Shown piece by piece: positions 3,380 through 38,160 of a DNA stretch of 64,000 bases. The notes beneath the pieces were generated by a model. The model was not told the origin of the DNA and made no database searches. It saw only the letters and a program-made list of their open reading frames with translations. Source of the stretch: an uncultured Clostridium sp. (GTDB taxonomy: Bacteria; Bacillota; Clostridia; TANB77; CAG-508); NCBI GenBank assembly GCA_902406115.1, contig CABPCL010000004.1:23995-87994 (forward strand), given 5' to 3'. Position numbers and translations under genes: made by a program. How positions within the stretch are numbered: position 1 is the first letter of the stretch; every line of letters starts with the position of its first letter.

Positions 3380-3749
3380 CAAATAAGTTATAAATTATAT
3401 ATTTAATTATTATTTTAAGATTATTATTTTGAAAGTAGTATCTTTGATTAATTTTTTTATAAAACTATTTTTAAATTATTATTATAAGACCATTTTTTAA
3501 TTATTATTTTCGCAATTTTGCGCAGTTTGCTGATTCAAAGAATCAGCAGTAAAAAATAAGAAAATAATAATTAAAAAATAAAGATAATAAATAAGAATAA
3601 TAAATAGGAATTAAAAAACAAGAATAAAAAAATAATAATAAAAATGAGAGTAAAATATGAGCAAAAATAAGAAGTTTAGTAATTTAATAAATTTAATAAT
3701 AAAATTATAAAGTAATATCAAAATTGAAAAATTTTAGGAGGAAATTAAA

Positions 3750-4298: not shown

Positions 4299-4325
4299 AA
4301 TAAAAGAAGAAAAGGAAAATATAAT

Positions 4326-5048: not shown

Positions 5049-5087
5049 TATACAAAAACATATAAAATAAAGTGGAAGGAAATTAAT

Positions 5088-5894
5088 ATGAACGTAAAGA
5101 GATTTTTATCTGGGATATTACTATTCCCAATTTTCGCTGTTATTATGATATTTGGAAACAAATACATAATAGATATTTCAGTTAGTATTATAGCTATTAT
5201 GAGTTTACATGAATTTTATAAAGCATTTAGAGGAAAAGCGAAACCAATAGGATGGATAGGCTACATAATAGCAGCACTCATAGCTGTAATACATATAATA
5301 CCATCAAATTTAATATTACCAATAATTGGAGCAATAATACCAATTTCTATTATGGTATTATTTGCAAGAGTAATATTTAGTAATATGAAATTCAATATAG
5401 TTGATATATCAATAACATTTTTTGGAATATGCTATATAGTATTATTTTTAATGTTTGCACCTATAATAAGAGAAAATATAACCAATGGAAAAATATTAAT
5501 CTGGTATGTATTTTTAGCATCTTGGGGAACAGACATATTTGCCTATCTTATAGGAAAACATTTTGGAAAACATAAATTTACTCAAATTAGCCCAAACAAG
5601 TCAATAGAAGGATGCGTCGGTGGTATTTTAGGAGCTGTAGTAGCTATATTGATATATACATTTGTATGTAACAATGTATTTAATATGAGTATCAATTATT
5701 TCTATGCTATATTTATTTCAATATTATTAAGTTGCATTAGCCAAATAGGTGATTTAGCAGCATCTAGTATTAAAAGATATTGTGGAATAAAAGATTATAG
5801 TAACCTAATTCCAGGACATGGAGGAATGTTAGATAGAATAGATAGTGTTATATTTGTTTTACCATTTGCATATTTTTTATTGATGATAATTTAA
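5088..5894 (+). CDS. cdsA: phosphatidate cytidylyltransferase
   Basis: 268 aa polytopic membrane protein with the C-terminal CDP-diglyceride synthase signature (SIKRxxGIKDxSxLIPGHGGxLDRIDS). Confidence 0.9.
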   Translation: MNVKRFLSGILLFPIFAVIMIFGNKYIIDISVSIIAIMSLHEFYKAFRGKAKPIGWIGYIIAALIAVIHIIPSNLILPIIGAIIPISIMVLFARVIFSNMKFNIVDISITFFGICYIVLFLMFAPIIRENITNGKILIWYVFLASWGTDIFAYLIGKHFGKHKFTQISPNKSIEGCVGGILGAVVAILIYTFVCNNVFNMSINYFYAIFISILLSCISQIGDLAASSIKRYCGIKDYSNLIPGHGGMLDRIDSVIFVLPFAYFLLMII

Positions 5895-5915
5895 TTATGT
5901 AAGGAGAATTTTAAT

Positions 5916-6647
5916 TTGTTTTTTATTATAAATGCTATAAAAATTATATTTATATTAGGATTCTTAGTTTTAATTCATGAAACAGGACATTTTCTAGTAG
6001 CAAAACTATGTAAGGTAACAGTAAAAGAATTTGCTATTGGGTTCGGACCTACAATATGGAAAAAACAAGGAAAGGTAACCAAATATGCCTTAAGACTAAT
6101 TCCTTTAGGAGGCTTTGTTAGTATGGAGGGAGAAGAAGAACACTCTGATAAAGAGGGTTCTTTTAGCAAAAGCAGTATTCCAAAAAGAATTGCAATAGTT
6201 ATGGCAGGAGGGTTAGTTAATATTATATTTGCTTTAATTACATATGTAATATTAATTACAGTAATGACTGGAAGTATTAACCGTGCAATAGACTCAACAG
6301 GTAGATTTGCTTTTTCAATTATTGAAAGCTTAAAGTTATTATTCTCAGGAGGGGTTACTGTTAATCAATTAATGGGACCAGTAGGAATATCTGAAATAAT
6401 AGTTCAAACAAGTGGAATAGAAGAGTTTGTGTATATTATGGCACTTATATCAATGTCCTTAGGAGTAACAAATTTATTACCATTTCCTCCTTTAGATGGA
6501 GGAAAAGTAGTATTACTATTAATAGAGGCGATAAGAAGAAAGCCAATAAAAGAGAATACAGAAATAAAAATACAAATGATTGGATTTGTGGTGTTGATCA
6601 CATTATCTATTATTGTTACATTTAACGATATCACAAGGATTTTTTAA
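5916..6647 (+). CDS. rseP: M50-family site-2 protease (RseP/RasP-like) lacking the PDZ domain
   Basis: HETGHF (HExxH) in TM1; LDGG motif near the C-terminus; conserved position between cdsA and polC; only 243 aa, so the ~90-aa PDZ insert is absent; TTG start with AAGGAG RBS. Confidence 0.8.
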   Translation: MFFIINAIKIIFILGFLVLIHETGHFLVAKLCKVTVKEFAIGFGPTIWKKQGKVTKYALRLIPLGGFVSMEGEEEHSDKEGSFSKSSIPKRIAIVMAGGLVNIIFALITYVILITVMTGSINRAIDSTGRFAFSIIESLKLLFSGGVTVNQLMGPVGISEIIVQTSGIEEFVYIMALISMSLGVTNLLPFPPLDGGKVVLLLIEAIRRKPIKENTEIKIQMIGFVVLITLSIIVTFNDITRIF

Positions 6648-18319: not shown

Positions 18320-20944
18320 ATGAGCAATAAGTATGTATATCTATTTAAAGAAGGAAATGCATCAATGCGTGAATTATTAGGTGGAAAGGGTGCAAACTTA
18401 GCAGAAATGACTAACCTTGGACTTCCGATACCACAAGGATTTACAGTTACAACAGAAGCGTGTACACAATACTATAACGATGAACAAAAAATTTCAGAAG
18501 AAATTAAAACACAAATATTTAATACTTTATCAGAATTAGAAAAAATAACAGGTAAGAAATTTGGAAGTACAGAAAATCCATTATTAGTTTCTGTTCGTTC
18601 AGGAGCCAGAGCATCAATGCCAGGAATGATGGATACAATATTAAATCTAGGATTAAACGAGGATGTTGTAAACACATTGGCACAAAAAAATGAAAGATTT
18701 GCTTATGATAGTTACAGAAGATTTATTCAAATGTTTAGCGATGTTGTTATGGAAATACCAAAAGCTTTATTTGAAGAAGCTATTGACAAAATGAAACAAA
18801 CAAGAGGAGTTAAATTAGATACAGAATTAACAGCAGATGACCTAAAAGAATTAGTAAAAATATTTAAAGACATATATAGAAAAAAACAGGGAAGTGAATT
18901 TCCTACAAATCCATCAGAACAATTAATTCAAGCTGTTGAAGCAGTATTTAGATCATGGAATAACCCAAGAGCAATAACTTATAGAAGATTAAATGATATT
19001 CCTGGGGACTGGGGAACAGCTGTAAACGTACAAGAAATGGTGTTTGGAAATATGGGAGATGACTGTGGAACAGGTGTTGCATTTACACGTAACCCTGCAA
19101 CAGGTGAAAATAAAATATTTGGAGAATACTTAATGAATGCTCAAGGTGAAGATGTTGTAGCCGGAGTTAGAACGCCAGAGCCAATTGCAAAACTTGAAAG
19201 TACAAATAAAAAAGCTTATGACGATTTTATAATGTATGCTAATAAATTAGAAAGACACTATAAAGATATGCAAGATATGGAGTTTACAATTGAACATGGA
19301 AAGCTATTCTTTTTACAAACAAGAAATGGCAAAAGAACAGCAAATGCAGCGTTAAAAATTGCAGTTGATTTAGTAGATGAGGGAATGATTACAGAAAAAG
19401 AAGCAGTACTTAGAGTAGAGCCAAATCAATTAGATCAATTATTACATCCAAATTTTGATAGTGAAAAATTAAAAGAAGCAACACCAATAGCAACAGGTCT
19501 AGCAGCATCACCAGGAGCTGCAACAGGTAAAGTTGTTTTCACAGCAGAAAGAGCAGTGGAGTTGCATAATCAAGGTGAAAAAGACTTAATTCTAGTAAGA
19601 CTTGAAACATCACCAGAAGATATTGATGGTATGAATGTATGCCATGGTGTATTAACAGTAAGAGGAGGTATGACATCGCATGCAGCTGTTGTAGCTCGTG
19701 GGATGGGAACATGCTGTGTAGCTGGATGTGGAGATATTTTGGTTTCAGAAGAAGATAAAACATTTACACTTGAAAATGGTAATAAATATCATGAAGGAGA
19801 TTGGATTTCTTTAGATGGATCTACAGGAAAAGTTTATGGAGAAAAAATAGATACTATAGAGGCTTCTGTATCAGGAAACTTTGCAAAATTTATGGGATGG
19901 GCAGACAACTATAGACAAATGGAAGTAAGAGCAAATGCAGATACACCAAGAGATGCTAACCAAGCACGTAAATTTGGAGCACAAGGAATTGGATTGTGTA
20001 GAACAGAGCATATGTTCTTCGCACCAGAGAGAATTGCAGCTATAAGAGAGATGATAGTTTCAAAAACTGTAGAACAACGTAAAAATGCTTTAGAGAAAAT
20101 TTTACCTATGCAAAGAGAAGATTTTGAAGGATTATTTAAAGCGATGGACGGTTTACCTGTTACTATAAGATTGTTAGATCCACCATTACATGAATTTTTG
20201 CCACACACAGACGAAGAAATAAGAGATTTAGCTAAAGACATGGACATGAGCTTTGAAGAATTAAAAAATGTAGTCACAGAACTTCATGAATTTAACCCAA
20301 TGATGGGACATAGAGGCTGTCGTCTAGATGTAACATATCCCGAAATAGGAGAAATGCAAACAAGAGCAATTATACAAGCAGCAATAAATGTTTCAAAAGA
20401 AGGAATAAAAGTAAAACCAGAAATAATGATACCATTAGTTGGAGCTATTAAAGAATTAAAATATGTAAAAGATATTATAACTAAAACTGCAGTAGAAGTA
20501 ATGGAAGAAGAAAATATGCGTGTAGACTACATGATTGGAACTATGATAGAGATACCTAGAGCTGCACTTTTAGCTGATGAAATTGCAAAAGAGGCAGAGT
20601 TCTTCTCATTTGGAACAAATGACTTAACTCAATTAACATTTGGATTTAGTCGTGATGATGCTGGAAAATTCTTAGGAGATTATTATGATAAGAAAATATA
20701 TGAATTTGATCCATTTAAGAAAGTAGATCAAAATGGAGTAGGTAAATTAGTAGAAATGGCATCTGAATTAGGAAGAGAGGTAAGGCCAAATATTGAGCTT
20801 GGAATATGTGGTGAACATGGAGGAGAACCATCATCAGTAGAATATTGCCATAACATAGGATTAACATATGTATCTTGCTCACCATTTAGAGTTCCTATAG
20901 CGAGACTAGCAGCTTCACAAGCAGCAATAAAAAATCCAAGATAG
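18320..20944 (+). CDS. ppdK: pyruvate, phosphate dikinase
   Basis: 874 aa; PEP-utilising enzyme mobile domain (GGMTSHAAVVARGMG); C-terminal TIM barrel (LCRTEHMF); full-length PPDK architecture. Confidence 0.95.
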   Translation: MSNKYVYLFKEGNASMRELLGGKGANLAEMTNLGLPIPQGFTVTTEACTQYYNDEQKISEEIKTQIFNTLSELEKITGKKFGSTENPLLVSVRSGARASMPGMMDTILNLGLNEDVVNTLAQKNERFAYDSYRRFIQMFSDVVMEIPKALFEEAIDKMKQTRGVKLDTELTADDLKELVKIFKDIYRKKQGSEFPTNPSEQLIQAVEAVFRSWNNPRAITYRRLNDIPGDWGTAVNVQEMVFGNMGDDCGTGVAFTRNPATGENKIFGEYLMNAQGEDVVAGVRTPEPIAKLESTNKKAYDDFIMYANKLERHYKDMQDMEFTIEHGKLFFLQTRNGKRTANAALKIAVDLVDEGMITEKEAVLRVEPNQLDQLLHPNFDSEKLKEATPIATGLAASPGAATGKVVFTAERAVELHNQGEKDLILVRLETSPEDIDGMNVCHGVLTVRGGMTSHAAVVARGMGTCCVAGCGDILVSEEDKTFTLENGNKYHEGDWISLDGSTGKVYGEKIDTIEASVSGNFAKFMGWADNYRQMEVRANADTPRDANQARKFGAQGIGLCRTEHMFFAPERIAAIREMIVSKTVEQRKNALEKILPMQREDFEGLFKAMDGLPVTIRLLDPPLHEFLPHTDEEIRDLAKDMDMSFEELKNVVTELHEFNPMMGHRGCRLDVTYPEIGEMQTRAIIQAAINVSKEGIKVKPEIMIPLVGAIKELKYVKDIITKTAVEVMEEENMRVDYMIGTMIEIPRAALLADEIAKEAEFFSFGTNDLTQLTFGFSRDDAGKFLGDYYDKKIYEFDPFKKVDQNGVGKLVEMASELGREVRPNIELGICGEHGGEPSSVEYCHNIGLTYVSCSPFRVPIARLAASQAAIKNPR

Positions 20945-20955
20945 TAAAATATTAT

Positions 20956-20990
20956 AAAAAGGTACTTTACATAAAAGTACCTTTTTATAG
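20956..20990 (+). terminator. rho-independent terminator after ppdK
   Basis: aaaaggtac...gtaccttttt hairpin. Confidence 0.6.
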
Positions 20991-21062
20991 CATGATTGAC
21001 TTTTATTTTTATGTGTGATATTCTAAAGAATATAAATAGAAATATAAATAATAGAGGATGAA

Positions 21063-21920
21063 ATGATAAATTTACTTTTGTGTGGGAATAAAAAGGTTTT
21101 TGATGGAGCACTTACACAACTTCTGTCTATTACTAATAGAACAAAAGAAACCATAAATTGTTATATATTCACAATGGATGCTTCAAGATTAAAACCAGAA
21201 TATACATGTATAACAGATGAGCAAATAGACTTTTTAAATAAAGTGGTAAAATCAAAAAATAAAAATAATATAGTAAAAAAAATAGATGTTACCCAATTAT
21301 ATGAGCAAGAGTTTTTAAATTGTGCGAATGAAAGTGCATACTGTACGCCATATACATTACTAAGATTACTTGCAGATAAAGTACTTGATATACCAGATAA
21401 GCTGTTATATTTAGACATTGATATAATGGTAGGAGATGATATATCTAAGTTATATAATATTGATGTTTCAAAATATGAGTATGCTGCAGTAAAAGAAAAA
21501 TATGGATCTTGGTTTATAAGACCAGATTATATAAATGCAGGTATGCTATTATTTAATATGAAAAAAATAAAAGAGACAGGTCTTTTAGAAAAAGCAAGAG
21601 AACTAATAAAAAAGAGAAAGTTACTATTTGCAGATCAAGATGCAATCTTTTGGTCAACAACTAAAAAATTGCTCTTGCCAAGAATTTATAACGAACAATC
21701 TAAGTTTAATAAAAAAGATACTGTAATTTGCCATTTTTGTAAAAGGTTAATGCTTAGGCCATATCCTCATACCGAAAATTACAAGCAGTGGCAGGTCGAT
21801 GAAATACATAAATATTTAAAATGTTATTATTTTGACCAAGATCTAGAAGAATATTTAGAATTAAAAGAAGAATTTAACAAAGAAAATAAAAAAGAAATAA
21901 GAGGAGAACATGGAGAATAA
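21063..21920 (+). CDS. GT8-family glycosyltransferase (divergent N-terminal motif)
   Basis: 285 aa; DxD at YLDIDIMVGDD; NAGMLLFN motif characteristic of GT8 (RfaJ/GspA-like); overlaps the next ORF by 11 nt. Confidence 0.65.
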   Translation: MINLLLCGNKKVFDGALTQLLSITNRTKETINCYIFTMDASRLKPEYTCITDEQIDFLNKVVKSKNKNNIVKKIDVTQLYEQEFLNCANESAYCTPYTLLRLLADKVLDIPDKLLYLDIDIMVGDDISKLYNIDVSKYEYAAVKEKYGSWFIRPDYINAGMLLFNMKKIKETGLLEKARELIKKRKLLFADQDAIFWSTTKKLLLPRIYNEQSKFNKKDTVICHFCKRLMLRPYPHTENYKQWQVDEIHKYLKCYYFDQDLEEYLELKEEFNKENKKEIRGEHGE

Positions 21921-23784
21921 TTTAGAGGTAATACCAATATTTTTTGCAGTTGATGATGGATATATACCATTTTTAGCTGTTGCTTTACAGTCTTTAATAG
22001 AAAATTCATCAAAGAATTACTATTATTCAATTAAGATATTATATACAAATATTGAAGAGGAAAATAAACAGAAAATAAGCAAATATAAAAAAGAAAATGT
22101 AAACATAGAATTTGTTGACTTAAACTACTATATAAAAAAGGTTAAGGACAAATTATATACAAGGGACTATTATACAAAAACAACATATTTCAGATTGTTT
22201 ATTCCAAATTTGTACCCACAATATGATAAAGCAATATATTTAGATAGTGATATTGTTGTATTAGGGGATATTGCTGAGCTATATAATGTAAATATGGGAA
22301 ACAATCTAATTGCAGCAGCGCCAGATGACGTTATTCAAACGACTAAAGTTTTTCAAGAATATGCTGAAAAAGTTGTTGGAGTTGCAGATTATAGAAATTA
22401 TTTTAATGCTGGAATTCTTCTAATGAATTTAGATGAATTTAGAAAATTTAACTTTCAAGAGAAATTTTTATACCTATTAGAGACAATAAAATTTACTGTA
22501 GCACAAGACCAGGATTATTTAAACAGATTGTGCAAAGGAAAGGTAAAGATAATAGACAAAGCGTGGGACAGAATGCCAATTGCAATAGATGATATGAAAG
22601 AGGAAGATATAAAAGTAATTCACTATAATTTAGCGTATAAACCATGGCATTTTGAAAATGTACTATATAAAGACTATTTTTGGAAATATGCACAAAAAAC
22701 AGAATTTTATAAACAGATAGATGATATTAGAAAAAACTATACAGAAGAAGAAAGATTCAAAGATATGGAACAATATAAAAATTTACAAGACTTAGCTAAA
22801 AAAGAATCTGACTGTGTAGGCGATGATAGAAATTATAGAAAATCTAAGGAGAGCGCACTTCATAGAAAATATGGAAAATACTTCAAATACAAAAATTCAT
22901 TAAGAGAGGAAAAAAACATTCCAAAATCACAAAGTAGATTAGAGGTTCTAAAAAAAATAGAAGACTTAGAAAAAAATGGCATTTTTGATGTAGATGTAGA
23001 AGAAGATCCACCTACAATACCATTAGATGCAAAAGACGTAGATTATCTTAAGCAAAAAGAAACTAGCAAGATAATGAGAAGGGTTGCAATTAAGGTAGGA
23101 GAAGGCTTTGTAAATGTTTTGATGAGGAACAACAAATTAATTATAAAGCAAATAAATGGAATAGAAAATTTGCAAAATGTAAAAACAGGTGCAATGATAA
23201 CATGTAATCATTTTAATCCTTTTGACTCATTTACGGTTGAAAAAGTTTTTAGGATTTCTGGACAATCGAAATCAAAAAAATTATATAAAGTAATAAGAGA
23301 AGGAAATTATACAAACTTTTCAGGATTATATGGTTTCTTCTTTAGAAATTGTGATACATTACCATTAAGCTCAAACAAGAAAACAATGGTAGCTTTTATG
23401 AAAGCAGTAGATACAATATTAAAAAGAAAAGACTTTATATTAATATATCCAGAACAAAGTATGTGGTGGAATTATAGAAAACCAAAGCCTTTGAAAGATG
23501 GAGCTTTTAAAATAGCTGCAAGAAACAATGTTCCGGTTATACCTATTTTTATTACTATGCAAGATAGTGAAATAATAGGAGATGATGGATTTCCAGTTCA
23601 GGAGTATATTGTTAATATTGAAGAACCAATATATCCAGACGAGAAATTATCAGAAAAAGAAAATGCTAATATTATGAAAGATAAAAATTTTGAAGTATGG
23701 AAAAAGGTATATGAAGAATTTTATAATATGCCACTTCAGTATAATACTATAAAAGAAGACGATAAGGAATTTATAGATGAATAA
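21910..23784 (+). CDS. fusion protein: N-terminal GT8 glycosyltransferase plus C-terminal PlsC/LPLAT-type acyltransferase
   Basis: 624 aa; N-terminal IPIFFAVDDGY, YLDSDIVVLGD (DxD), NAGILLMN, HYNLAYKPW (GT8); residues around 400-624 carry CNHFNPFD (HX4D) and IYPEQS (acyltransferase motif III-like). Confidence 0.7.
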   Translation: MENNLEVIPIFFAVDDGYIPFLAVALQSLIENSSKNYYYSIKILYTNIEEENKQKISKYKKENVNIEFVDLNYYIKKVKDKLYTRDYYTKTTYFRLFIPNLYPQYDKAIYLDSDIVVLGDIAELYNVNMGNNLIAAAPDDVIQTTKVFQEYAEKVVGVADYRNYFNAGILLMNLDEFRKFNFQEKFLYLLETIKFTVAQDQDYLNRLCKGKVKIIDKAWDRMPIAIDDMKEEDIKVIHYNLAYKPWHFENVLYKDYFWKYAQKTEFYKQIDDIRKNYTEEERFKDMEQYKNLQDLAKKESDCVGDDRNYRKSKESALHRKYGKYFKYKNSLREEKNIPKSQSRLEVLKKIEDLEKNGIFDVDVEEDPPTIPLDAKDVDYLKQKETSKIMRRVAIKVGEGFVNVLMRNNKLIIKQINGIENLQNVKTGAMITCNHFNPFDSFTVEKVFRISGQSKSKKLYKVIREGNYTNFSGLYGFFFRNCDTLPLSSNKKTMVAFMKAVDTILKRKDFILIYPEQSMWWNYRKPKPLKDGAFKIAARNNVPVIPIFITMQDSEIIGDDGFPVQEYIVNIEEPIYPDEKLSEKENANIMKDKNFEVWKKVYEEFYNMPLQYNTIKEDDKEFIDE

Positions 23785-24556
23785 TAAAAAAATAATTTAT
23801 TATAAAGATGAATTAAATGATGAATTTTCTAAAGCAAAAATAATACCAAGAGAGATAAATGAAAATTATAAATACGAGCATAAAAACCCTTTGTGGAATT
23901 TATGCTCTCTGGTATTACAAAACATTTTAAGTGTACCCATAAAAACTTTATATGCTAAGGTAAAATTTAAAATAAAGTATGTTGGCAGAGAAAAATTAAA
24001 GCCTTATAGAAATATGGGTTATTTTATATATGGAAATCATACCCAACCATTTGCAGATACATTTATACCAAGTATTCCAATATACCCAAAAAGAAATTTT
24101 TTTATTGTAAACCCAGAAAATGTCTCAATGAAGCCATTTGAAACAGCAGTGGAAATGCTAGGAGCTTTACCGATACCAGGCAACAAAGCTGCAATGAAAA
24201 AATTCCTTGAATCAATAAAGAAAAAAATAAGAAAAGGACATGCTATTACAATATACCCAGAGGCACATATATGGCCTTATTATACAAGAATTAGACCTTT
24301 TAAATCGGTTTCTTTCAAATATCCTATAGAATTAGGGGTACCTTCATTTTGTATAACAAATACATATCAAAGATATGGAAAACGTAAAGACAGAATACAG
24401 ATAGTAAGCTATATTGATGGTCCGTTTTTCCATAATCCAGAGTTAAGCAAGAAAGACATGCAGCAAGACCTAAGGAACCAAATTTATAATTGTATGGTAG
24501 AAAGAAGCAAGAATAGTAATATTGAATATATAGAATATAAAAAGGCGAGTAATTAA
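23777..24556 (+). CDS. PlsC/LPLAT-family acyltransferase
   Basis: 259 aa; YGNHTQPFAD (H-x5-D variant) and IYPEAH motifs; overlaps the upstream fusion ORF by 8 nt (operon). Confidence 0.6.
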   Translation: MNNKKIIYYKDELNDEFSKAKIIPREINENYKYEHKNPLWNLCSLVLQNILSVPIKTLYAKVKFKIKYVGREKLKPYRNMGYFIYGNHTQPFADTFIPSIPIYPKRNFFIVNPENVSMKPFETAVEMLGALPIPGNKAAMKKFLESIKKKIRKGHAITIYPEAHIWPYYTRIRPFKSVSFKYPIELGVPSFCITNTYQRYGKRKDRIQIVSYIDGPFFHNPELSKKDMQQDLRNQIYNCMVERSKNSNIEYIEYKKASN

Positions 24557-24557
24557 A

Positions 24558-24592
24558 AAGAGGGTTCCTGTTTTAGGACACCCTCTTTCTAG
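24558..24592. terminator. bidirectional terminator between the GT8 operon and the crp/fnr gene
   Basis: aagagggt...accctctt GC-containing hairpin. Confidence 0.55.
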
Positions 24593-24662: not shown

Positions 24663-25286
24663 TTAAAGCAAAGTAATTTTATTTTTTGTTTTCTTAATTA
24701 TTTTCTCATCTTTTAATCTTTTAATTTCTCGCATCATAGCTGTTCTATCGATAATTAAATAATCAGATAGGTCAGTTAATGAAAACGGAAGTTCAAAGGT
24801 TTTACTATTATTTTTAATTGATAAATTATTAAAATATGTTAAAAGCTTTTCTCTTACACTTTTATTTGTCAATAGTAGCATCCTAAAGTTTTGCTCTGCA
24901 ATACTATGTAAGATTAAATCAGGCAAATTCCTCAATAGATCAATATGATAAGAACAATCTAAAGTGCAACGCTCTGCAGTATCATAAGGATAAAATAACA
25001 CTTTAGCTTTTTTATTTGCTAAAACAAACAACTCTCTATCCATATATATTTTGAATAAAGCTTCACCAAAAATATCATTCTTTTTATAATAATAAAGAAT
25101 TTTTTTATTTCCATCTTTATCGTATGTAATTAATTGTGCTTCACCTTCTAACAATATACAGAATTGATTTCTTTTTGTTAAGAAAGTAGTAATTACTTCA
25201 TTTGCTTGAAATTCTTTAGTTTCACATAATCTACAATTTGTCTTCAATTTGTTAACGAAATTGTCAACATCAAAATTCTTTTTCAT
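24663..25286 (-). CDS. Crp/Fnr-family transcriptional regulator (FNR-like, Cys-rich)
   Basis: cNMP-binding beta-roll plus C-terminal HTH (LTDLSDYLIIDRTAMMREIKRLKDEKII); Cys at CRLC, QFC and CTLDC; start at MKKNFDV (25286) preferred over track start 25334, which lies inside an operator palindrome. Confidence 0.8.
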   Translation of the reverse strand: MKKNFDVDNFVNKLKTNCRLCETKEFQANEVITTFLTKRNQFCILLEGEAQLITYDKDGNKKILYYYKKNDIFGEALFKIYMDRELFVLANKKAKVLFYPYDTAERCTLDCSYHIDLLRNLPDLILHSIAEQNFRMLLLTNKSVREKLLTYFNNLSIKNNSKTFELPFSLTDLSDYLIIDRTAMMREIKRLKDEKIIKKTKNKITLL

Positions 25287-25321
25287 AAAAAACCACCATA
25301 TTAATAATATATCACAAAATA

Positions 25322-25335
25322 GTTGCCATGGCAAC
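25322..25335. promoter_or_regulatory. GTTGC-N4-GCAAC palindrome (candidate Crp/Fnr operator, autoregulatory position)
   Basis: gttgccatggcaac, perfect 5-4-5 inverted repeat 36 bp upstream of the regulator start. Confidence 0.5.
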
Positions 25336-25540: not shown

Positions 25541-27700
25541 ATGAAAATCATAAAAAGAGACGGAACAATTGTTGATTATAATTCAGATAAAATAAGAATT
25601 GCAATTGGTAAAGCTAATAATGAAGTTTCTAGAAAAGAAAAGGCTTCAGATGAACAAATAAATGAAATAATAGGATATATTGAAGATTTAAAGAAATCAA
25701 GAATATTAGTAGAAGACATACAAGATATAATTGAACAAAAATTGATGGAATTAAATAAATACCAATTAGCAAAAAAATATATTACATATCGTTATACAAG
25801 AGAATTAGTTAGAAAAGCAAATACAACAGATCAATCTATTAAAGAATTAATTGAAGGAGAGAGTGAATACTGGAATAACGAAAATTCTAATAAAAACGCA
25901 ACTGTAGTTACAACACAAAGAGATTATTTAGCTGGTATTACAAGTACAGATATTACCAGAAGATTTTTATTACCAGAAGATATTGTAAAAGCACATGACG
26001 AAGGAATAATTCATTTTCATGATGCCGACTATTTTGCACAAAATGCATTACATAACTGCGATTTAATTAACTTAGAAGATATGTTACAAAATGGAACAAA
26101 TATTAATGGCGTTATGATCGAAAAACCTCATAAATTCTTAACTGCAATGACTATTGCTACTCAGATAATTACTGCAGTAACATCTAGTCAATATGGTGGG
26201 GCAACAGTTACAATGACACATCTTGCTCCATTTGTAAGAGATAGTTACAACTTTTATTTAAAAAGATATAAAAATAGAAATTTATCACAAGAGCAATGTG
26301 AAAAGTTTGCAAAAGAAGATTTAGCAAAAGAAATAAAAGATGGAGTTCAAACATTCCAGTACCAAATTAATTCAATGACTACAACAAATGGTCAATCACC
26401 ATTTTTAAGTGTTTGTTTTTATTTGGGTGAAACAAAAGAGTATAAAGAAGAATTAGCAATGATTATAAAAGAATTCTTAGAGCAAAGAATCCAAGGAATG
26501 AAAAACGAGAAGGGTGTATATATTACTCCTGCTTTCCCAAAATTGTTATATGTATTAGAGGAAGACAATATACATAAAGATAGTAAGTATTGGTATTTGA
26601 CAGAGCTTGCTGCAAAATGTACAGCTAAGAGAATGGTACCTGATTATATTTCTGAAAAGAAAATGCTAGAGTTGAAAGTAGATAAGGATGGAAATGGAAA
26701 TTGTTATCCTTGTATGGGATGCCGATCATTCTTAACACCTTATATTGATCCTAAAACAAATAAACCTAAATATTATGGAAGATTTAACCAAGGTGTTGTA
26801 ACAATAAATCTAGTTGATGTTGCATTATCATCAGGAAAAAATATAGATAAATTCTGGAAGATTTATGAAGAAAGACTAGAGTTATGTCATAGAGCATTAC
26901 AAAAAAGACATGAGAGATTAGCAAAAGCAACAAGTGATGTTGCACCTATATTGTGGCAACATGGTGCTTTGGCAAGACTAAAAAAAGGTGAGAGTATACA
27001 CCCATTATTACATGGTGGATATTCAACAATATCATTAGGTTATGCAGGTCTTTATGAGTGCGTAAAATATATGACAGGGCATAGCCATACTGATAATGGC
27101 GCAGGTAAAGAATTTGCAGTTGAAGTTATGCAAAAAATGGACGATAAATGTAAAGAGTGGAAAGAAAAAGAGGATATTGACTATAGTGTATATGGAACTC
27201 CAATAGAATCAACAACATACAAATTTGCAAAATGTTTAAAAGATAGATTTGGAATTGTAAAAGGTATAACAGATAGAAATTACATTACAAATTCTTATCA
27301 TGTACCAGTATTTGAAGAAATCGATGCTTTCTCTAAATTGAAATTAGAAAGTGAATTCCAAAAATTAAGTCCAGGTGGTGCAATTTCTTATGTTGAAACA
27401 CCTAACCTACAAAATAACTTGGAAGTTGTTATACAAATAATTCAATTTATTTATGACAATATAATGTATGCAGAATTAAACACAAAATCTGATTATTGCC
27501 AACAATGTGGATATGACGGAGAAATATTAATTGATGATAACCTAGAATGGTATTGTCCAAATTGCGGAAATAGAGATCATAATACATTAAATGTTGCTAG
27601 AAGAACTTGCGGATATATAGGAAGCAATTTCTGGAATAAAGGAAGAACACAAGAAATAAAAGAAAGAGTGCTTCACATTGACAATAAAGATGATGAATAA
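25541..27700 (+). CDS. nrdD: anaerobic ribonucleoside-triphosphate reductase (class III, glycyl radical)
   Basis: 719 aa; ATP-cone N-terminus; C-terminal Zn ribbon (CQQCGY...CPNCGN) and glycyl-radical motif RRTCGYIGS. Confidence 0.93.
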   Translation: MKIIKRDGTIVDYNSDKIRIAIGKANNEVSRKEKASDEQINEIIGYIEDLKKSRILVEDIQDIIEQKLMELNKYQLAKKYITYRYTRELVRKANTTDQSIKELIEGESEYWNNENSNKNATVVTTQRDYLAGITSTDITRRFLLPEDIVKAHDEGIIHFHDADYFAQNALHNCDLINLEDMLQNGTNINGVMIEKPHKFLTAMTIATQIITAVTSSQYGGATVTMTHLAPFVRDSYNFYLKRYKNRNLSQEQCEKFAKEDLAKEIKDGVQTFQYQINSMTTTNGQSPFLSVCFYLGETKEYKEELAMIIKEFLEQRIQGMKNEKGVYITPAFPKLLYVLEEDNIHKDSKYWYLTELAAKCTAKRMVPDYISEKKMLELKVDKDGNGNCYPCMGCRSFLTPYIDPKTNKPKYYGRFNQGVVTINLVDVALSSGKNIDKFWKIYEERLELCHRALQKRHERLAKATSDVAPILWQHGALARLKKGESIHPLLHGGYSTISLGYAGLYECVKYMTGHSHTDNGAGKEFAVEVMQKMDDKCKEWKEKEDIDYSVYGTPIESTTYKFAKCLKDRFGIVKGITDRNYITNSYHVPVFEEIDAFSKLKLESEFQKLSPGGAISYVETPNLQNNLEVVIQIIQFIYDNIMYAELNTKSDYCQQCGYDGEILIDDNLEWYCPNCGNRDHNTLNVARRTCGYIGSNFWNKGRTQEIKERVLHIDNKDDE

Positions 27701-27723
27701 AATAATGTAAGAAGGAATTGACT

Positions 27724-28227
27724 ATGAGATACAATAAGATTAGAAAAATGGATATTTCAGATGGACCTGGTGTAAGAGTATCAATTTTTATGCAAGGGTG
27801 CACATTTAATTGCAAAAATTGTTTTAATCCAGAAACACATGATTTTAATGGTGGAAAAGAATTCACAGATTCTACTATCAACAGAGTTTTAGAATTATGT
27901 GATAATGAAAATGTAGAAGGCTTATCTATTTTAGGAGGAGAACCAATGAATCCTAAAAATATAGAAGGAACTACAAGATTAGCAAAGGCTTTTAAGGAAA
28001 AGTTTCCAAATAAAAATATATGGGCATGGTCTGGTTTTAAATTTGACAGAGACTTAAAAGATAAGGAAGTCCTAAAATATATAGATGTATTAGTAGATGG
28101 ACAATATGTTGATGCTCTTCATGATCCTACATTAGATTGGAGAGGATCTTCTAATCAAAGAGTTATAAATGTTCAAGAAAGTTTAAAAGAACATAAAGTT
28201 GTTTTAAAAGAAAAAGGCTTAATATAG
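27724..28227 (+). CDS. nrdG: anaerobic RNR activating protein (radical SAM)
   Basis: CTFNCKNC Cx3Cx2C motif; about 167 aa; immediately downstream of nrdD. Confidence 0.9.
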   Translation: MRYNKIRKMDISDGPGVRVSIFMQGCTFNCKNCFNPETHDFNGGKEFTDSTINRVLELCDNENVEGLSILGGEPMNPKNIEGTTRLAKAFKEKFPNKNIWAWSGFKFDRDLKDKEVLKYIDVLVDGQYVDALHDPTLDWRGSSNQRVINVQESLKEHKVVLKEKGLI

Positions 28228-28256: not shown

Positions 28257-29279
28257 ATGAAGGATAAAGGCAAATTTATTAAGAACTTATTGATTTTTGT
28301 GTTACTAATTATACTAACATTCTATATTTTGCTAAAAGATCAAAATATATTAGAAATATTTAGTATCATATCATCAATTAAAATACAATATATATTAGTT
28401 GGAATACTGTGCATGGCAATTTATATAATACTTGAGGCTGTTAATATAGGAAGAACTTTAAAAGCATTAAATGAGAAAAGCAATTTTTTAAGTAATATAA
28501 AATATGCTCTTATAGGTTTTTTCTTCAGTGCTATAACACCAGCAGCAAGTGGTGGTCAACCCATGCAAATATATTACATGTATAAAGACAATATATCTAT
28601 TTCAAATTCAACATTAGCTTTACTATTAAATTTGCTAAGTATGCAAATATCAACCATTGGAATAGCATTAGTTAGCTTAATATTTAATTATGGATATTTA
28701 AACAATTTTTTAATAGCATGTTTTGTGTTAGGAGTATTTCTTAACTCAACTGCATTAATATTATTATTAATAGCTATATTTTCAAAAAGAATGTCGGCAG
28801 GATTAATAAATATTGTAATAAAAGTTTTAAGATTCTTTAGAATAAAGAATATAGAACAGAAAAAAGAAAAATTTGAATATGAATTAAAGCAATATCAAGA
28901 AAATGCAGTATTTGTACGAAACAATGTTAGATTAATATTAAAAACTTTAGTGACTACACTAATTCAATTCTTGATATATTACAGTATCACATATTGGGTA
29001 TATTTATCATTTGGATTTACAGAGCATAACATATTGCAATTAATTTCAATGCAATCAGTGTTATACGCAACAGTTTCAGGTATTCCATCACCGGGAGCGG
29101 TTGGCGTAAGTGAAGGAGCATTTATGCAAATATTTAGACAGATATATCCAGAAACAACAATTAGTAGTGCTGTTTTACTAAATAGAGGGATAAATTTCTA
29201 TTTATTTGTTCTTGTTAGTGGAATAGTAATAATCATAAATCAATTAAGAATGAACAGGGAAGATAAAGTAAGGGAATAA
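28257..29279 (+). CDS. lysylphosphatidylglycerol-synthase-TM-like (flippase-like) membrane protein
   Basis: 340 aa; 8 TM helices with the MprF N-terminal / LPG_synthase_TM family pattern; no synthase domain. Confidence 0.6.
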   Translation: MKDKGKFIKNLLIFVLLIILTFYILLKDQNILEIFSIISSIKIQYILVGILCMAIYIILEAVNIGRTLKALNEKSNFLSNIKYALIGFFFSAITPAASGGQPMQIYYMYKDNISISNSTLALLLNLLSMQISTIGIALVSLIFNYGYLNNFLIACFVLGVFLNSTALILLLIAIFSKRMSAGLINIVIKVLRFFRIKNIEQKKEKFEYELKQYQENAVFVRNNVRLILKTLVTTLIQFLIYYSITYWVYLSFGFTEHNILQLISMQSVLYATVSGIPSPGAVGVSEGAFMQIFRQIYPETTISSAVLLNRGINFYLFVLVSGIVIIINQLRMNREDKVRE

Positions 29280-35178: not shown

Positions 35179-35217
35179 TATAGTAAAATATTAGTTGAAT
35201 AAAAAGAGGTGAAGTAT

Positions 35218-36549
35218 ATGAGCAAACCAACAGTAGCAATAGTTGGAAGACCAAATGTAGGTAAATCTACATTTTTTAATTATATTGTAGGAAAAAGAAT
35301 ATCAATAGTAGAAGATACACCAGGGGTTACAAGAGATAGAGTTTATGCAGATGCTAACTGGAGAGGTAGAAATTTTACATTAATTGACACAGGCGGAATT
35401 GAACCTGAATCTGATGATGTTATACTATCTCAAATGAGAGAACAAGCTAACTTAGCAATCTCAATGGCAGATGTAATAATATTTGTTACAGACATAAAAC
35501 AAGGGATAACAGCAGCTGACAATGATATTGCATTAATGCTTAGAAAGTCAAAAAAACCAATAGTTTTAGTATGTAATAAGGCAGACAACTATGGAAAAGT
35601 ACCAGATGAATTATATGAATTTTATAACCTAGGATTAGGAGAACCTCATAGAGTTTCTTCTGTTAATGCAATAGGAATAGGTGATGTGTTAGATGCAATT
35701 TATGATGAATTGCCACCAAAAAGTGAAGACGAAGAAGACGACGATGTTATTAAGGTAGCAATTATAGGAAAACCAAATGTTGGAAAATCATCACTTGTTA
35801 ACAAAATCTTAGGAGAAAAAAGAGTTATCGTAAGTGATATCGCAGGTACAACAAGGGATGCAATTGATTCTGAATTTGAAAATGAATTTGGAAAATATGT
35901 ATTCATAGATACAGCCGGAATTAGAAAAAAGAATAAAGTATCAGAAAAATTAGAAAAATATAGTGTTATGAGAAGCTTACTAGCAGTAGAAAGAGCCGAT
36001 GTATGTCTTTTGATGATAGATGCAAATGAAGGTGTAACAGAACAAGATACAAAAATAGCAGGGGAAGCACACGAAGCTGGAAAAGGCATTATAATAGTAG
36101 TAAATAAATGGGATGAATATGAGAAAGATAATGGAACTGTAGAAAAATATAAAAAGCAAGTATATGACAAATTGTCATATTTATCATATGCACCAATATT
36201 ATTTATATCAGCGAAAACCGGTCAAAGAGTAAACAAACTTTTTGAGTTGATTAATAGCGTGGCAAGTCAAAATGCTATGAGAGTATCTACATCTGTATTA
36301 AATCAAGTATTAAATGAGGCGATTGCGATTGTACAACCTCCAACAGATAAAGGAAGAAGACTAAGACTATTTTACATGACACAGGCAAGTACAAAGCCAC
36401 CAACATTTGTTGTGTTTGTTAATGATAAAGATTTATTTCATTTTTCATATGAAAGATATTTAATAAATCAAATAAGAAAAGAATTTGATCTAACTGGAAC
36501 ACCAGTTAGAATGATTGTACGAGAGAAAAGTGAAAAAGAGGGGGAATAG
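35218..36549 (+). CDS. der: ribosome-assembly GTPase Der (EngA)
   Basis: two tandem GTPase domains (GRPNVGKST and GKPNVGKSS) plus C-terminal KH-like domain; ATG at 35218 with AAGAGG RBS. Confidence 0.93.
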   Translation: MSKPTVAIVGRPNVGKSTFFNYIVGKRISIVEDTPGVTRDRVYADANWRGRNFTLIDTGGIEPESDDVILSQMREQANLAISMADVIIFVTDIKQGITAADNDIALMLRKSKKPIVLVCNKADNYGKVPDELYEFYNLGLGEPHRVSSVNAIGIGDVLDAIYDELPPKSEDEEDDDVIKVAIIGKPNVGKSSLVNKILGEKRVIVSDIAGTTRDAIDSEFENEFGKYVFIDTAGIRKKNKVSEKLEKYSVMRSLLAVERADVCLLMIDANEGVTEQDTKIAGEAHEAGKGIIIVVNKWDEYEKDNGTVEKYKKQVYDKLSYLSYAPILFISAKTGQRVNKLFELINSVASQNAMRVSTSVLNQVLNEAIAIVQPPTDKGRRLRLFYMTQASTKPPTFVVFVNDKDLFHFSYERYLINQIRKEFDLTGTPVRMIVREKSEKEGE

Positions 36550-36552
36550 AGT

Positions 36553-37161
36553 ATGATACCATATATTATAATTGCAGTTATTGCATATTTAATAGGTAGT
36601 ATTAATTTTTCAGTTATTATAAGTAAAAAAGTAGCTGGATTTGATGTAAGAGAAAAAGGAAGCGGAAATGCAGGAAGCACAAATGTACTAAGAACAGTAG
36701 GGAAAAAAGCTGCAATAGTTACTTTAATTTGTGATATTTTAAAAGGAGTAATTTCTATATTACTTGCAAAACTTATGGGAAATATATGGGGAGAATTAGA
36801 CAAAGAATTACTAATACAGTTGGCTGGAATATTTGTTATATTAGGACATACATTTCCAATCTTCTTTAAATTTAAAGGGGGCAAAGGAGTTGCTACATCT
36901 TTAGGAGTTATTCTTACAACAAACTGGCAAATAGGTTTAATATGCTTAGTATTTGCTTTAGTGTTAATGGCACTAACACAAATGGTATCTGTAGGATCAG
37001 TAGCAGCTGCAATATTATATCCAGTATTAACTATTTTTATGGCTGGAAGTTACACTATCTCAGCTATAGTAGTTGCAGTTTTGGTAGTTTTTAATCATAG
37101 AGAAAATGTGAAGAGAATATTAAGCGGAACAGAAAACAAAATAAGTTTTAAAAAGAATTAA
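36553..37161 (+). CDS. plsY: glycerol-3-phosphate acyltransferase PlsY
   Basis: 202 aa; GSGNAGSTNVLR motif; conserved der-plsY-gpsA synteny. Confidence 0.92.
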   Translation: MIPYIIIAVIAYLIGSINFSVIISKKVAGFDVREKGSGNAGSTNVLRTVGKKAAIVTLICDILKGVISILLAKLMGNIWGELDKELLIQLAGIFVILGHTFPIFFKFKGGKGVATSLGVILTTNWQIGLICLVFALVLMALTQMVSVGSVAAAILYPVLTIFMAGSYTISAIVVAVLVVFNHRENVKRILSGTENKISFKKN

Positions 37162-37176
37162 AACAAGGAGAGTAAT

Positions 37177-38160
37177 ATGAAGAAAATATGTATTATAGGA
37201 AGTGGCAGTTGGGGAGTAGCACTTGCAATTCATACAGCTAAAATGGGAAATCAAGTTAAAATCTGGTCATTTTTAGAAGAGGAAGCAGATTTAATTAATA
37301 ATAAGAGAAAATGCAAATTTCTACCAGGCATAACAATTCCAGAAAATATAACTTGTACAACTAATATAGAAGATGCAGTAAAAGGAAGCGATATAATCCT
37401 ACATGTTACACCTTCGAAGTTTACAAGAGAAACAATAAAAAAGTACAAACAATATGTAGAGGATCAACCTGTTATCATTTGTTCTAAAGGATTTGAAAAA
37501 GATACTTTATATACATTAAGCGAAGTAGCATCTGAGGAAATGCCAAATGCAAAAATAGGAGTATTCACAGGCCCAAGTCATGCTGAAGAAGTATCTTTGG
37601 AAATACCAACAGCAATAGTAATTGCTTCTAAAAATATGGACATACTATATAATATACAAGATACATTCATGAATGAAAACATGAGAATATATACTACTTC
37701 AGACGTAATAGGAGCAGAACTAGGTGGAGCATTAAAAAACATTATTGCTTTTTGTGCTGGAATAACATCTGAATTAAATTTAGGAGATAACACAACAGCT
37801 GCTTTAATTACAAGAGGTCTAACAGAAATTTCAAGATTAGGTGTGGCAATGGGTGGAAACCATAATACATTTTATGGTTTGTCTGGATTAGGAGATTTAA
37901 TAGTTACGTGTTTAAGTGAACACAGTAGAAATAGACAAGCTGGAAAATGTATTGGAAGAGGTTTATCTGTAGAAGAAACTCAAAAAGAAGTTGGTATGAC
38001 AATAGAAAGCATCGATAACATAGAAGTTGCATATGAATTATCAAAAAAATATAATATTGAAATGCCAATTGTAAGTACAGTATATAATGTATTATATAAT
38101 GGATTAAAACCATCAGAAGCAGTAAAAATGCTTATGACACGTGAAAAAAAATGTGAATAA
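37177..38160 (+). CDS. gpsA: NAD(P)H-dependent glycerol-3-phosphate dehydrogenase
   Basis: 327 aa; N-terminal GSGSWG Rossmann motif; full-length GpsA similarity. Confidence 0.93.
   Translation: MKKICIIGSGSWGVALAIHTAKMGNQVKIWSFLEEEADLINNKRKCKFLPGITIPENITCTTNIEDAVKGSDIILHVTPSKFTRETIKKYKQYVEDQPVIICSKGFEKDTLYTLSEVASEEMPNAKIGVFTGPSHAEEVSLEIPTAIVIASKNMDILYNIQDTFMNENMRIYTTSDVIGAELGGALKNIIAFCAGITSELNLGDNTTAALITRGLTEISRLGVAMGGNHNTFYGLSGLGDLIVTCLSEHSRNRQAGKCIGRGLSVEETQKEVGMTIESIDNIEVAYELSKKYNIEMPIVSTVYNVLYNGLKPSEAVKMLMTREKKCE

Follow-up and report, generated by a model that had tools for sequence, protein, structure and literature searches.

Paralogous pairs of family-8 glycosyltransferase and acyltransferase domains in a conserved three-gene module of gut Clostridia: a putative assembly line for an acylated membrane glycolipid

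The window (the whole 64,000-nucleotide stretch of DNA that was analysed) contains three overlapping genes on the plus strand, referred to here as the trio. The first, GT8a (21063-21920), encodes a stand-alone family-8 glycosyltransferase of 285 aa, predicted to be of the retaining, GT-A type. The second (21910-23784) encodes a 624-aa fusion, GT8b::ATb, in which a GT8 domain (residues 1-290, 21910-22779) is followed by a variable, charged linker predicted to be disordered (approximately residues 291-338, 22780-22923) and by an acyltransferase module (residues 339-624, 22924-23784) made up of an N-terminal extension and an LPLAT/PlsC-fold core with an HX4D motif. The third, AT3 (23777-24556), encodes a stand-alone LPLAT-type acyltransferase of 259 aa. 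GT8a and the fusion overlap by 11 nt and the fusion and AT3 by 8 nt, and the Shine-Dalgarno sequences AAGAGGAG and AAGGAA precede the ATG codons of the fusion (21910) and of AT3 (23777), respectively. An earlier note on this DNA had described a three-gene operon; its coordinates are exact, all three genes lie on the plus strand, and with these overlaps and internal Shine-Dalgarno sequences the operon is real.

Upstream of the trio lies ppdK (18320-20944). A palindromic hairpin (20953-20989, assigned to neither strand) with a 16-bp stem between A/T tracts stands directly 3' of the ppdK stop codon; it was picked up by a terminator scan, can also be read directly in the sequence, and is likely a bidirectional terminator that sets ppdK apart from the trio. 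A sigma-70-like promoter candidate on the plus strand (20996-21024; TTGACT, 17 nt, TATTCT, with TG ahead of the -10 hexamer) is followed by a GAGGA ribosome-binding site ahead of the GT8a ATG at 21063. This site is a candidate by consensus match only, and promoter-like sites are no more numerous in this region than expected from shuffling. Directly 3' of the AT3 stop codon, a GC-containing hairpin on the plus strand (24560-24588; GAGGGTTCCT...AGGACACCCTC, then TTT) was found by eye and is possibly the operon terminator; its T tract is short, and the terminator scan passed over it for that reason. The earlier note had placed the trio directly downstream of ppdK, which is correct as to position. 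As to relevance it is not: ppdK is not a conserved neighbour in 80 related loci, the hairpin and promoter-like site lie in between, and the adjacency is incidental.

Both glycosyltransferases match PF01501 in Pfam, GT8a with E=2.3e-18 (67.1 bits against a gathering cut-off of 24.3) and GT8b, over residues 9-248 of the fusion, with E=2e-47 (162.4 bits, same cut-off). The LYLDxD, NAG, FADQ and HFxKRL...PYP motifs of GT8a are invariant in 64 orthologues, and the DSD (D112/D114) and NAG (166-168) motifs of GT8b are invariant across 36 sequences of 47-89% identity. Identity between the two domains is about 30%. GT8b has PDB sequence matches to WbbM (6u4b, E=4e-23) and LgtC (1g9r, E=1e-20), and GT8a has sequence matches to the same entries. 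Similarly, Foldseek matched the GT8b part of the fusion model, which has pLDDT mostly above 85, to WbbM 6u4b (E=5e-21) and LgtC (TM 0.77, target-normalised), and for this part the model predicts a GT-A fold that superposes on those of solved GT8 enzymes. Neither GT8a nor GT8b matched the GT-B families PF00534 and PF13439 or GT28 in Pfam, where PF01501 was the only match beside a weak one to PF18404, and no NCBIfam glycolipid-synthase model matched among the glycosyltransferases of the trio. Among solved enzymes, the LgtC/WbbM-type GT8 alpha-galactosyltransferases stand closest to GT8b and have DxD, NAG and H...KPW in common with it. They differ in extending LOS or O-antigen glycans in Gram-negatives, in their low identity (25-27%) and in having no acyltransferase association.

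The two acyltransferases match PF01553 (Pfam), ATb over residues 415-548 of the fusion (E=1.5e-12, 47.9 bits against a cut-off of 23) and AT3 with E=1.7e-7 (31.5 bits, same cut-off). Across the same 36 sequences, the HX4D block of ATb (CNHFNPFD, with N433-H434 and D439) and its YPEQS motif (513-517, within P514-E-Q-S-M-W-W) are invariant. R463-E-G-N is invariant as well, and the N-terminal extension is conserved as RLEVLKKIxxLExxGxFDxDVExDPP. AT3 departs from the HX4D spacing, having H88-T-Q-P-F-A-D94 (H-x5-D). This NHTxxxxD block reaches at least 90% conservation among 110 representatives of the AT3 family, which comprises 1095 representatives at 50% identity (E<=1e-3), and the motif PEAHxWPYY is also strongly conserved. 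The earlier note had read from the letters a 285-aa GT8 with DxD and NAG motifs, a 624-aa GT8::acyltransferase fusion with CNHFNPFD and YPEQS, the domain boundaries of that fusion and a stand-alone acyltransferase with an H-x5-D motif, and these profile matches and invariant motifs bear out all four; the C-terminal part of the fusion is an acyltransferase by its PF01553 match and its PlsC-like fold.

The ATb domain model (pTM 0.79) has PlsC from T. maritima (5kym) as its best PDB match (E=3.8e-8, TM 0.51/0.60), followed by LpxM, GPAT and PatA, and the matches to PlsC 5kym, LpxM, plant GPAT, PatA and human GPAT1 range in E from 4e-8 to 5e-5. The HX4D dyad and PF01553 are common to PlsC and ATb. 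However, PlsC is only 18% identical to ATb, scores against its family model TIGR00530 are 39.7 bits for ATb and 21.7 bits for AT3 (cut-off 102.95), and the score against NF011593, also PlsC, is 17 (cut-off 501). The block III EGTR motif of PlsC is absent from both acyltransferases, which have PEQS (ATb) or PEAH (AT3) and no Arg there; AT3 differs further in its H-x5-D motif, and both are fused to or co-inherited with glycosyltransferases. Moreover, PlsC carries a hydrophobic two-helix anchor where ATb has its charged N-terminal extension. By the sub-cut-off scores and the missing EGTR, ATb and AT3 fall outside PlsC proper. Mutagenesis of PlsB/PlsC assigned a phosphate-binding role to the EGTR arginine, and its absence, together with scores far below cut-off, is evidence against a glycerol-phosphate acceptor. 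Membership of the PatA/LpxL type (PF03279) was rejected, with no Pfam match at E<=0.1 for either acyltransferase and similarity at fold level only (11-13% identity). ATb and AT3 may nevertheless work like PatA.

Scans found no hydrophobic segment in GT8a, no TM segment in AT3 and none in any of the three trio enzymes. AT3 is strongly basic (K+R 44, D+E 23, net charge about +21), as is usual for proteins that bind anionic membranes peripherally, and from charge and homology we infer membrane association of the trio enzymes.

At least 574 species genomes of gut Clostridia, including Roseburia, Agathobacter and Lachnospira, carry the GT8b::ATb fusion in unbroken form. In 12 of 80 related loci a genuine stop, Shine-Dalgarno sequence and ATG within the linker divide it into two genes. 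A frameshift artefact is thereby refuted, the fused form being the majority state in relatives and the splits clean; judged from sequence, the fusion is genuine. The linker varies in length across the fusion alignment, its residues 304-335 have pLDDT <50, and the whole fusion model reaches pTM 0.51, so that the inter-domain geometry is not confidently predicted. All 80 fetched loci keep the trio, in two gene orders, and no other neighbour was universally conserved among them. Furthermore, other natural fusions occur, namely GT8a::GT8b::ATb (P0159) and AT3::GT8a (P0255, P0319, P0379), and in the predicted proteins these fusions tie together all four catalytic domains. The trio forms a self-contained biosynthetic module whose four catalytic domains make up two paralogous pairs, each of a GT8 and an LPLAT. 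In addition, the same AT3-type acyltransferase is found in a large family of GT4::AT3 fusions in Bacilli, Erysipelotrichia and Izemoplasmatales, which occur as stand-alone single genes. The weak best NCBIfam matches of their GT4 domains include IagA/BgsA, GlcNAc-PG synthase, Mgs and Dgs, far below cut-offs and among many other GT4 families.

A further gene of the window (28257-29279, plus strand) encodes a flippase-like membrane protein of 340 aa with about eight hydrophobic (TM) segments, which matches PF03706 (E=4.5e-35) and TIGR00374 (77.4 bits against a cut-off of 43.2). It is not adjacent to the trio in the window genome. In 13 of 80 loci its orthologue (54-64% identity) stands directly upstream of GT8a and often overlaps it; these loci all fall in one part of the tree, and the Lachnospiraceae loci lack it. 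The gene is therefore a candidate partner of the trio. The protein and its trio-adjacent orthologues belong to the same TM-domain family as MprF, from which they differ in that the C-terminal aminoacyl-phosphatidylglycerol synthase domain is missing, PF03706 being the single Pfam domain, and in that the gene associates with only part of the trio-bearing lineages.

The reading that we favour, with slightly better than even confidence, is that the trio works as an assembly line on the cytoplasmic face of the membrane, making a di-glycosyl glycolipid with multiple acyl groups. This is suggested by the domains and their conserved motifs, co-inheritance, repeated fusions and adjacency of a flippase-like gene, and by the fusion of an AT3-type acyltransferase to GT4 domains with weak glycolipid-synthase matches. 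Members of PF01553 use lipids as acceptors for the long acyl chains that they transfer, and the fold of ATb resembles those of PlsC, LpxM, GPAT and PatA; there is precedent in PatA, and the acceptors of LgtC and WbbM are lipid-anchored and are glycosylated on the cytoplasmic side of the membrane. The absence of TM segments and the charge of AT3 would fit peripheral membrane binding. The earlier note had proposed an acylated glycoconjugate, with a glycolipid among its examples; the four-domain fusions, the PF03706 adjacency and the GT4::AT3 fusions strengthen this reading, with a glycolipid as the probable product. Against it, we know of no GT8 that glycosylates diacylglycerol, and the characterised bacterial glycolipid synthases known to us are GT4, GT28, GT2 or GT21 enzymes. 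The restriction of the PF03706 adjacency to 13 of 80 loci and the sub-cut-off, mixed matches of the GT4 partners also weaken it, as does the low-confidence inter-domain geometry where channelling and a shared membrane face are concerned.

We infer the donor sugars, acceptor lipid, order of steps, position of acylation, product and cellular role from this evidence as follows. GT8a and GT8b, as predicted retaining, DxD/metal-dependent GT-A enzymes, would each add an alpha-linked hexose from a UDP-sugar to a membrane-embedded lipid, most plausibly diacylglycerol or glycosyl-diacylglycerol. ATb (His434/Asp439) and AT3 (His88/Asp94) would then draw on acyl-ACP or acyl-CoA to attach long-chain acyl groups to hydroxyls of the new sugars, with putative channelling of the glycosylated intermediate from GT8 to acyltransferase in the fusion. 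The product would then reach the outer leaflet, carried across by the PF03706 flippase-like protein in genomes that have it beside the trio or elsewhere.

The closest known parallel is the early mycobacterial phosphatidylinositol-mannoside pathway (PimA/PimB/PatA), in which a membrane lipid is glycosylated by two enzymes and acylated twice on the cytosolic side; PatA is peripheral, belongs to the same fold superfamily and attaches a long acyl chain to a sugar of the glycolipid (PMC8519569). The second acyltransferase is unidentified in that pathway, and the Pim enzymes are unfused, unlike GT8b::ATb. PimA and PimB are GT4 enzymes (GT-B) that use GDP-mannose, whereas the two glycosyltransferases of the trio are GT8 (GT-A). 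We take PatA to be of the LpxL/HtrB type (PF03279), whereas the trio acyltransferases match PF01553 only and are 11-12% identical to PatA, and we know of no phosphatidylinositol lipids in Clostridia, the hosts of the trio. GT4/GT28 glycosyl-diacylglycerol synthases (A. laidlawii MGS/DGS, BgsA/BgsB, IagA, UgtP) perform the task presumed for the trio, making di-glycosyl glycolipids at the cytoplasmic face, with a GT-B rather than a GT-A fold. Acylated glycosyl-diacylglycerols occur in mollicutes and lactic acid bacteria, and to our knowledge no acyltransferase gene has been assigned to them.

An unlikely alternative is that the product is a glycolipid but ATb and AT3 act on its lipid anchor rather than on the sugars, acylating the glycerol of a glycosyl-glycerol or lyso-glycolipid and so making or remodelling di-glycosyl-diacylglycerol by another route. 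Two glycosyltransferases and two acyltransferases would yield exactly two sugars and two acyl chains, the best structural match of ATb is the glycerol-backbone acylator PlsC, and the invariant R463, in a VIREGN motif, occupies the LPLAT motif II position. However, ATb and AT3 lack the EGTR arginine and fall far short of the cut-offs set for the PlsC and AGPAT families, no conserved nearby enzyme would supply a glycosyl-glycerol precursor, and the single-gene GT4::AT3 fusions are more easily explained by glycosylation of an existing lipid and subsequent acylation of the sugar.

It is improbable that the module instead modifies a protein or a surface glycan, lipid-linked or polymeric (a lipoteichoic-acid-type polymer, a capsule or an undecaprenyl-linked glycan), with the GT8 domains extending the glycan and the acyltransferases supplying a lipid anchor or acyl decoration. 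Relatives of the GT8 domains do include WbbM (O-antigen) and GlyE (serine-rich-repeat protein glycosylation), and a MurJ/Polysacc_synt-family gene lies 4 kb upstream in the window, but neither this gene nor any other envelope gene is a conserved neighbour, and no polymerase, priming transferase, secA2/SRRP genes or LTA synthase stand beside the trio in the 80 loci. Moreover, glycan O-acylation is normally performed by acyltransferase-3, MBOAT, hexapeptide-repeat or SGNH types rather than PF01553. More doubtful still is a non-membrane product, a glycerol-free acylated disaccharide that is secreted or stored and acts as a surfactant, signal or antimicrobial. A diacyl disaccharide would agree with a stoichiometry of two sugars and two acyl groups, the enzymes have no TM segment, and Roseburia sp. 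499 has an RND/MMPL-type exporter and a TetR regulator directly downstream of the trio. Yet this RND neighbour is not conserved, the sole recurrent neighbour is a lipid-flippase-like protein, and the trio is not accompanied by a sugar-phosphate or disaccharide synthase that could provide a free acceptor. Finally, although homologues are publicly annotated as '1-acyl-sn-glycerol-3-phosphate acyltransferase', and the window genome has a PlsY pathway (plsY, 36553-37161) with no canonical plsC among the tested window ORFs, it is very improbable that the acyltransferases are housekeeping PlsC enzymes beside unrelated glycosyltransferases, given covalent fusions in several combinations and lineages, co-inheritance even with rearranged gene order, overlapping start and stop codons, scores three- to five-fold below PlsC cut-offs and H-x5-D and PEAH/PEQS motifs that are divergent yet strongly conserved.

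No published characterisation of the module was found, and it carries only generic annotations. We suggest tentatively, with confidence well short of even, that gut Clostridia use the two paralogous GT8-acyltransferase pairs to make a structurally undescribed class of lipid, either an alpha-diglycosyl lipid with three or four acyl chains or a diacyl-disaccharide lipid free of glycerol. The hosts meant are Roseburia, Agathobacter, Lachnospira and many uncultured lineages, which are abundant in the human and animal gut.

The module spans at least 574 species genomes, and butyrate-producing genera that rank among the most abundant in the gut are included. Its natural fused and split variants offer a clean system for asking why glycosyl and acyl transfer become covalently coupled. 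The chemistry of sugar O-acylation in Gram-positive glycolipids is known, and we are aware of no gene assigned to it. If an acylated glycolipid is made, the module would provide such a gene, GT8 would join the families that build bacterial membrane glycolipids, and gut commensals would have a new surface lipid of possible immunological relevance. Furthermore, if the lipid is indeed novel, the AT3/ATb clade would represent the missing sugar-acylating enzymes of Gram-positive glycolipids, and their product would rank as a candidate ligand of lipid sensors in the host.

The three genes considered here overlap one another, and their coordinates as claimed in the earlier note match exactly the ORFs in the window, all on the + strand. 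ORF1 (GT8a, 285 aa; 21063-21920) encodes a family-8 glycosyltransferase, ORF2 (624 aa; 21910-23784) a fusion of a second such enzyme with an acyltransferase module (GT8b::ATb), and ORF3 (AT3, 259 aa; 23777-24556) a stand-alone acyltransferase. The ORF1 stop codon TAA (21918-21920) falls 11 nt inside ORF2, which has AAGAGGAG upstream of its ATG at 21910, and the ORF2 stop codon TAA (23782-23784) overlaps ORF3, which has AAGGAA ahead of its ATG at 23777. A 16 bp palindromic hairpin (20953-20989), found by terminator scan and sequence reading, follows the ppdK stop codon, and between this hairpin and the ORF1 ATG lie a promoter-like TTGACT-17-TATTCT and then a GAGGA ribosome-binding site. Furthermore, a GC-containing hairpin 3' of the AT3 stop codon was read by eye and was not flagged by the terminator scan. 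Given the overlapping ORFs, the ribosome-binding sites, the flanking hairpins and the promoter-like site, the trio is most simply read as one translationally coupled transcription unit separate from ppdK. A functional tie to ppdK was ruled out by the hairpin between them and by the neighbourhood comparison described below.

Between the DUF1294 gene and ppdK there are two short adjoining + strand ORFs in different frames (17527-17817 and 17852-18118), the latter with a weak DUF6273 match (E=0.002), and the pair may be left over from a disrupted gene. On the other side of the trio, a Crp/Fnr-family regulator (24663-25334, - strand) is convergent with AT3 and divergent from nrdD-nrdG (anaerobic ribonucleotide reductase and activase; 25541-28227, + strand), and is probably an nrd regulator unrelated to the trio.

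All Pfam matches of the trio exceed gathering scores: PF01501 (GT8) in ORF1 (E=2.3e-18) and in residues 9-248 of ORF2 (E=2e-47), and the PF01553 acyltransferase domain in residues 415-548 of ORF2 (E=1.5e-12) and in ORF3 (E=1.7e-7). Among PDB sequences GT8b matches WbbM (E=4e-23) and LgtC (E=1e-20), and the same two are matched by fold. A model of the C-terminal 290 residues of the fusion alone (pTM 0.79) has PlsC (5kym, E=3.8e-8) as its best fold match, followed by LpxM, plant GPAT, PatA and human GPAT1. The proposed composition of a GT8, a GT8::acyltransferase fusion and a second acyltransferase is thereby borne out, as is the assignment of the C-terminal part of the fusion. AT3 had no PDB sequence match even at E<=1, and none of the three proteins has an NCBIfam model of its own. 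In alignments at 47-89% identity the fusion motifs DSD, NAG, H238...KPWH, NHFNxxD, VIREGN and YPEQSMWW are invariant, while the GT8a motifs LYLDxD, NAG, FADQ and HFxKRL...PYP are kept in 64 orthologues. The H-x5-D variant noticed earlier in the stand-alone acyltransferase (NHTxxxxD) is a family-wide feature of AT3, together with PEAHxWPYY.

Neither acyltransferase counts as PlsC proper: TIGR00530 scores are 39.7 (ATb) and 21.7 (AT3) against a cut-off of 102.95, and the EGTR block gives way in both to motifs that have no arginine. All three enzymes have zero transmembrane segments, AT3 is strongly basic (K+R 44 vs D+E 23), and the three resemble peripheral cytoplasmic enzymes. In the full-length model of the fusion (pTM 0.51) the linker (residues 304-335) is predicted to be disordered, and the orientation of GT8b relative to ATb, and with it that of the two active sites, is predicted without confidence. 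Elsewhere in the window, at 2666-6647 and 35209-38160, there are housekeeping lipid and envelope genes such as an amino-acid-kinase-family ORF, probably pyrH (2666-3379), uppS (4326-5048), cdsA (5088-5894), an M50 protease gene, probably rseP (5916-6647), and plsY (36553-37161). The presence of plsY indicates that the organism uses the PlsY route to phospholipids; none of 10 tested window ORFs of suitable size is a canonical plsC.

The GT8b::ATb fusion is real and old. About 68 of the 80 species loci carry it intact, and thousands of proteins have the same fused form; this rules out a frameshift or assembly artefact and upholds the fusion in relatives. At least 574 genomes encode a relative in a scan of one genome per species, and among the matches listed by protein searches more than 3000 homologues share the PF01501+PF01553 architecture. 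The exact protein of the window is present on 44 contigs, and the window locus recurs in an ENA metagenome scaffold. All three components were found in the 80 fetched loci wherever the contig reaches far enough, in the order GT8a-fusion-AT3 in nearer Clostridia and AT3-GT8a-fusion in Lachnospiraceae (Roseburia, Agathobacter, Lachnospira).

The fusion is divided into two genes in the remaining 12 loci (L016, L018, L020, L021, L026, L034, L046, L053, L055, L057, L059 and L069). In every one of these the linker has a genuine stop codon and a Shine-Dalgarno-like sequence, with an ATG 3-60 nt further on, a pattern that rules out an alternative genetic code or sequencing error behind the in-frame stops. 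The acyltransferase gene is always in the reading frame of GT8b, the gaps all being multiples of 3; the junction AATAGGAGATAGTTT..ATG is common to several split loci, and in most the stop is a TAG that forms part of a TAGGAG Shine-Dalgarno sequence. The pattern is consistent with the split and fused states arising from one another as a single stop codon was gained or lost, and read-through of that codon may yield both fused and separate proteins. As the split point lies immediately before the conserved element RLxVLxKIxxLExxGxFDxDVExDPP, this element belongs to the acyltransferase module. Other fusions include a GT8a::GT8b::AT protein (P0159, 875 aa) and AT3::GT8a proteins (P0255, P0319 and P0379), and these independent events, linking all four catalytic domains, are strong evidence that the four act in one pathway.

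When 1353 ORFs of the 80 loci were clustered all against all, only the trio proved to be universally conserved. One neighbour recurs: a PF03706/TIGR00374 (MprF-type) flippase-like gene, directly upstream of GT8a and often overlapping it in 13/80 loci. The clustering found no other conserved neighbours, so that neither ppdK nor the Crp-family regulator nor nrdDG belongs to the conserved surroundings of the trio. The window encodes an orthologue (28257-29279, + strand) with 54-64% identity to the 13 trio-adjacent copies and about eight hydrophobic segments, 3.7 kb downstream of the trio and 29 nt after nrdG; from the position of these 13 copies, a rearrangement seems to have separated the gene from the trio in this lineage. 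In Roseburia sp. 499 (CP135164.1, locus L082), the trio is followed immediately by genes for a 1267-aa RND/MMPL-family transporter, a possible lipid exporter, and for a TetR regulator (11983-16424), an arrangement that is not conserved in other loci.

An exhaustive search returned 1095 AT3-family representatives at E<=1e-3 and 212 at E<=1e-30, the longer members being fusions with GT8a-type domains or GT4 glycosyltransferases. This acyltransferase type thus pairs time and again with glycosyltransferases from two families, GT8 and GT4, both of them retaining, and one glycosyltransferase plus one acyltransferase appears to be the functional unit. The GT4::AT3 architecture (P0266 family) forms a large family in Bacilli, Erysipelotrichia and Izemoplasmatales MAGs, and in all three loci compared (L084 7001-8974, L085 850-2817, L086 7001-8941) the gene stands alone beside a divergent HTH_3 (XRE-type) regulator. 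The best NCBIfam matches of the GT4 domains, all far below cut-off, are to IagA/BgsA (LTA-anchor glycolipid transferases), GlcNAc-PG synthase, mono- and di-glucosyl-DAG synthases and other GT4 families. These proteins are candidate one-protein enzymes that glycosylate and then acylate a glycolipid. A further protein, P0264 (1079 aa), carries an AT3-type domain C-terminal to a P-type ATPase (E1-E2 ATPase and HAD domains), and may be an artificial fusion produced by gene calling or assembly rather than a genuine protein.

PF01553 enzymes move long acyl chains from acyl-ACP or acyl-CoA onto lipid acceptors, and the closest GT8 relatives use lipid-anchored acceptors at the cytoplasmic membrane face. 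The most economical reading is that the trio would form an assembly line whose end product is an acylated di-glycosyl glycolipid, with acceptor, donors and product that we infer. GT8a and GT8b would put two alpha-linked hexoses onto a membrane lipid, ATb and AT3 would attach acyl chains, and the finished glycolipid would then be flipped outward. Acylation is most likely on the sugars because the phosphate-binding motif is missing and GT4::AT3 proteins provide a precedent; that they would instead acylate a glycosyl-glycerol or lyso-glycolipid on its glycerol backbone, giving the same product class by other chemistry, is unlikely if still credible. It is rather improbable that the module targets a surface polymer or protein, as polymerase, priming enzyme and secretion genes do not co-occur with the trio and PF01553 is not known as a family of glycan O-acyltransferases. 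That the product is a soluble or secreted acyl-sugar is more doubtful again, and a housekeeping PlsC merely co-located with unrelated glycosyltransferases is very unlikely because of the covalent fusions and the sub-threshold PlsC scores.

In function, the proposed glycolipid assembly line most resembles the early PIM pathway, which likewise has two glycosyltransferases and two acylations: PimA and PimB attach two mannoses, PatA and an unidentified second acyltransferase the two acyl chains, all at the cytosolic membrane face (PMC8519569). The trio lies outside the Pim families, having GT8 enzymes where PimA and PimB are GT4, and its acyltransferases match PF01553 with no match to PF03279, unlike the PatA family.

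Public homologues are named only 'glycosyltransferase', 'lipopolysaccharide biosynthesis glycosyltransferase' or '1-acyl-sn-glycerol-3-phosphate acyltransferase', and full-text literature searches turned up no published work on the module, although reports in subscription journals may exist. The component families themselves are familiar, and databases already display the architecture; the novelty lies in recognising a conserved four-domain GT8/LPLAT module with its fusion-fission series, together with its flippase association and the parallel GT4::AT3 family. Nothing about the module, which we infer to be of the kind that assembles glycolipids at the cytoplasmic face with sugar acylation, is at odds with current understanding, and its biology could matter for gut commensals.
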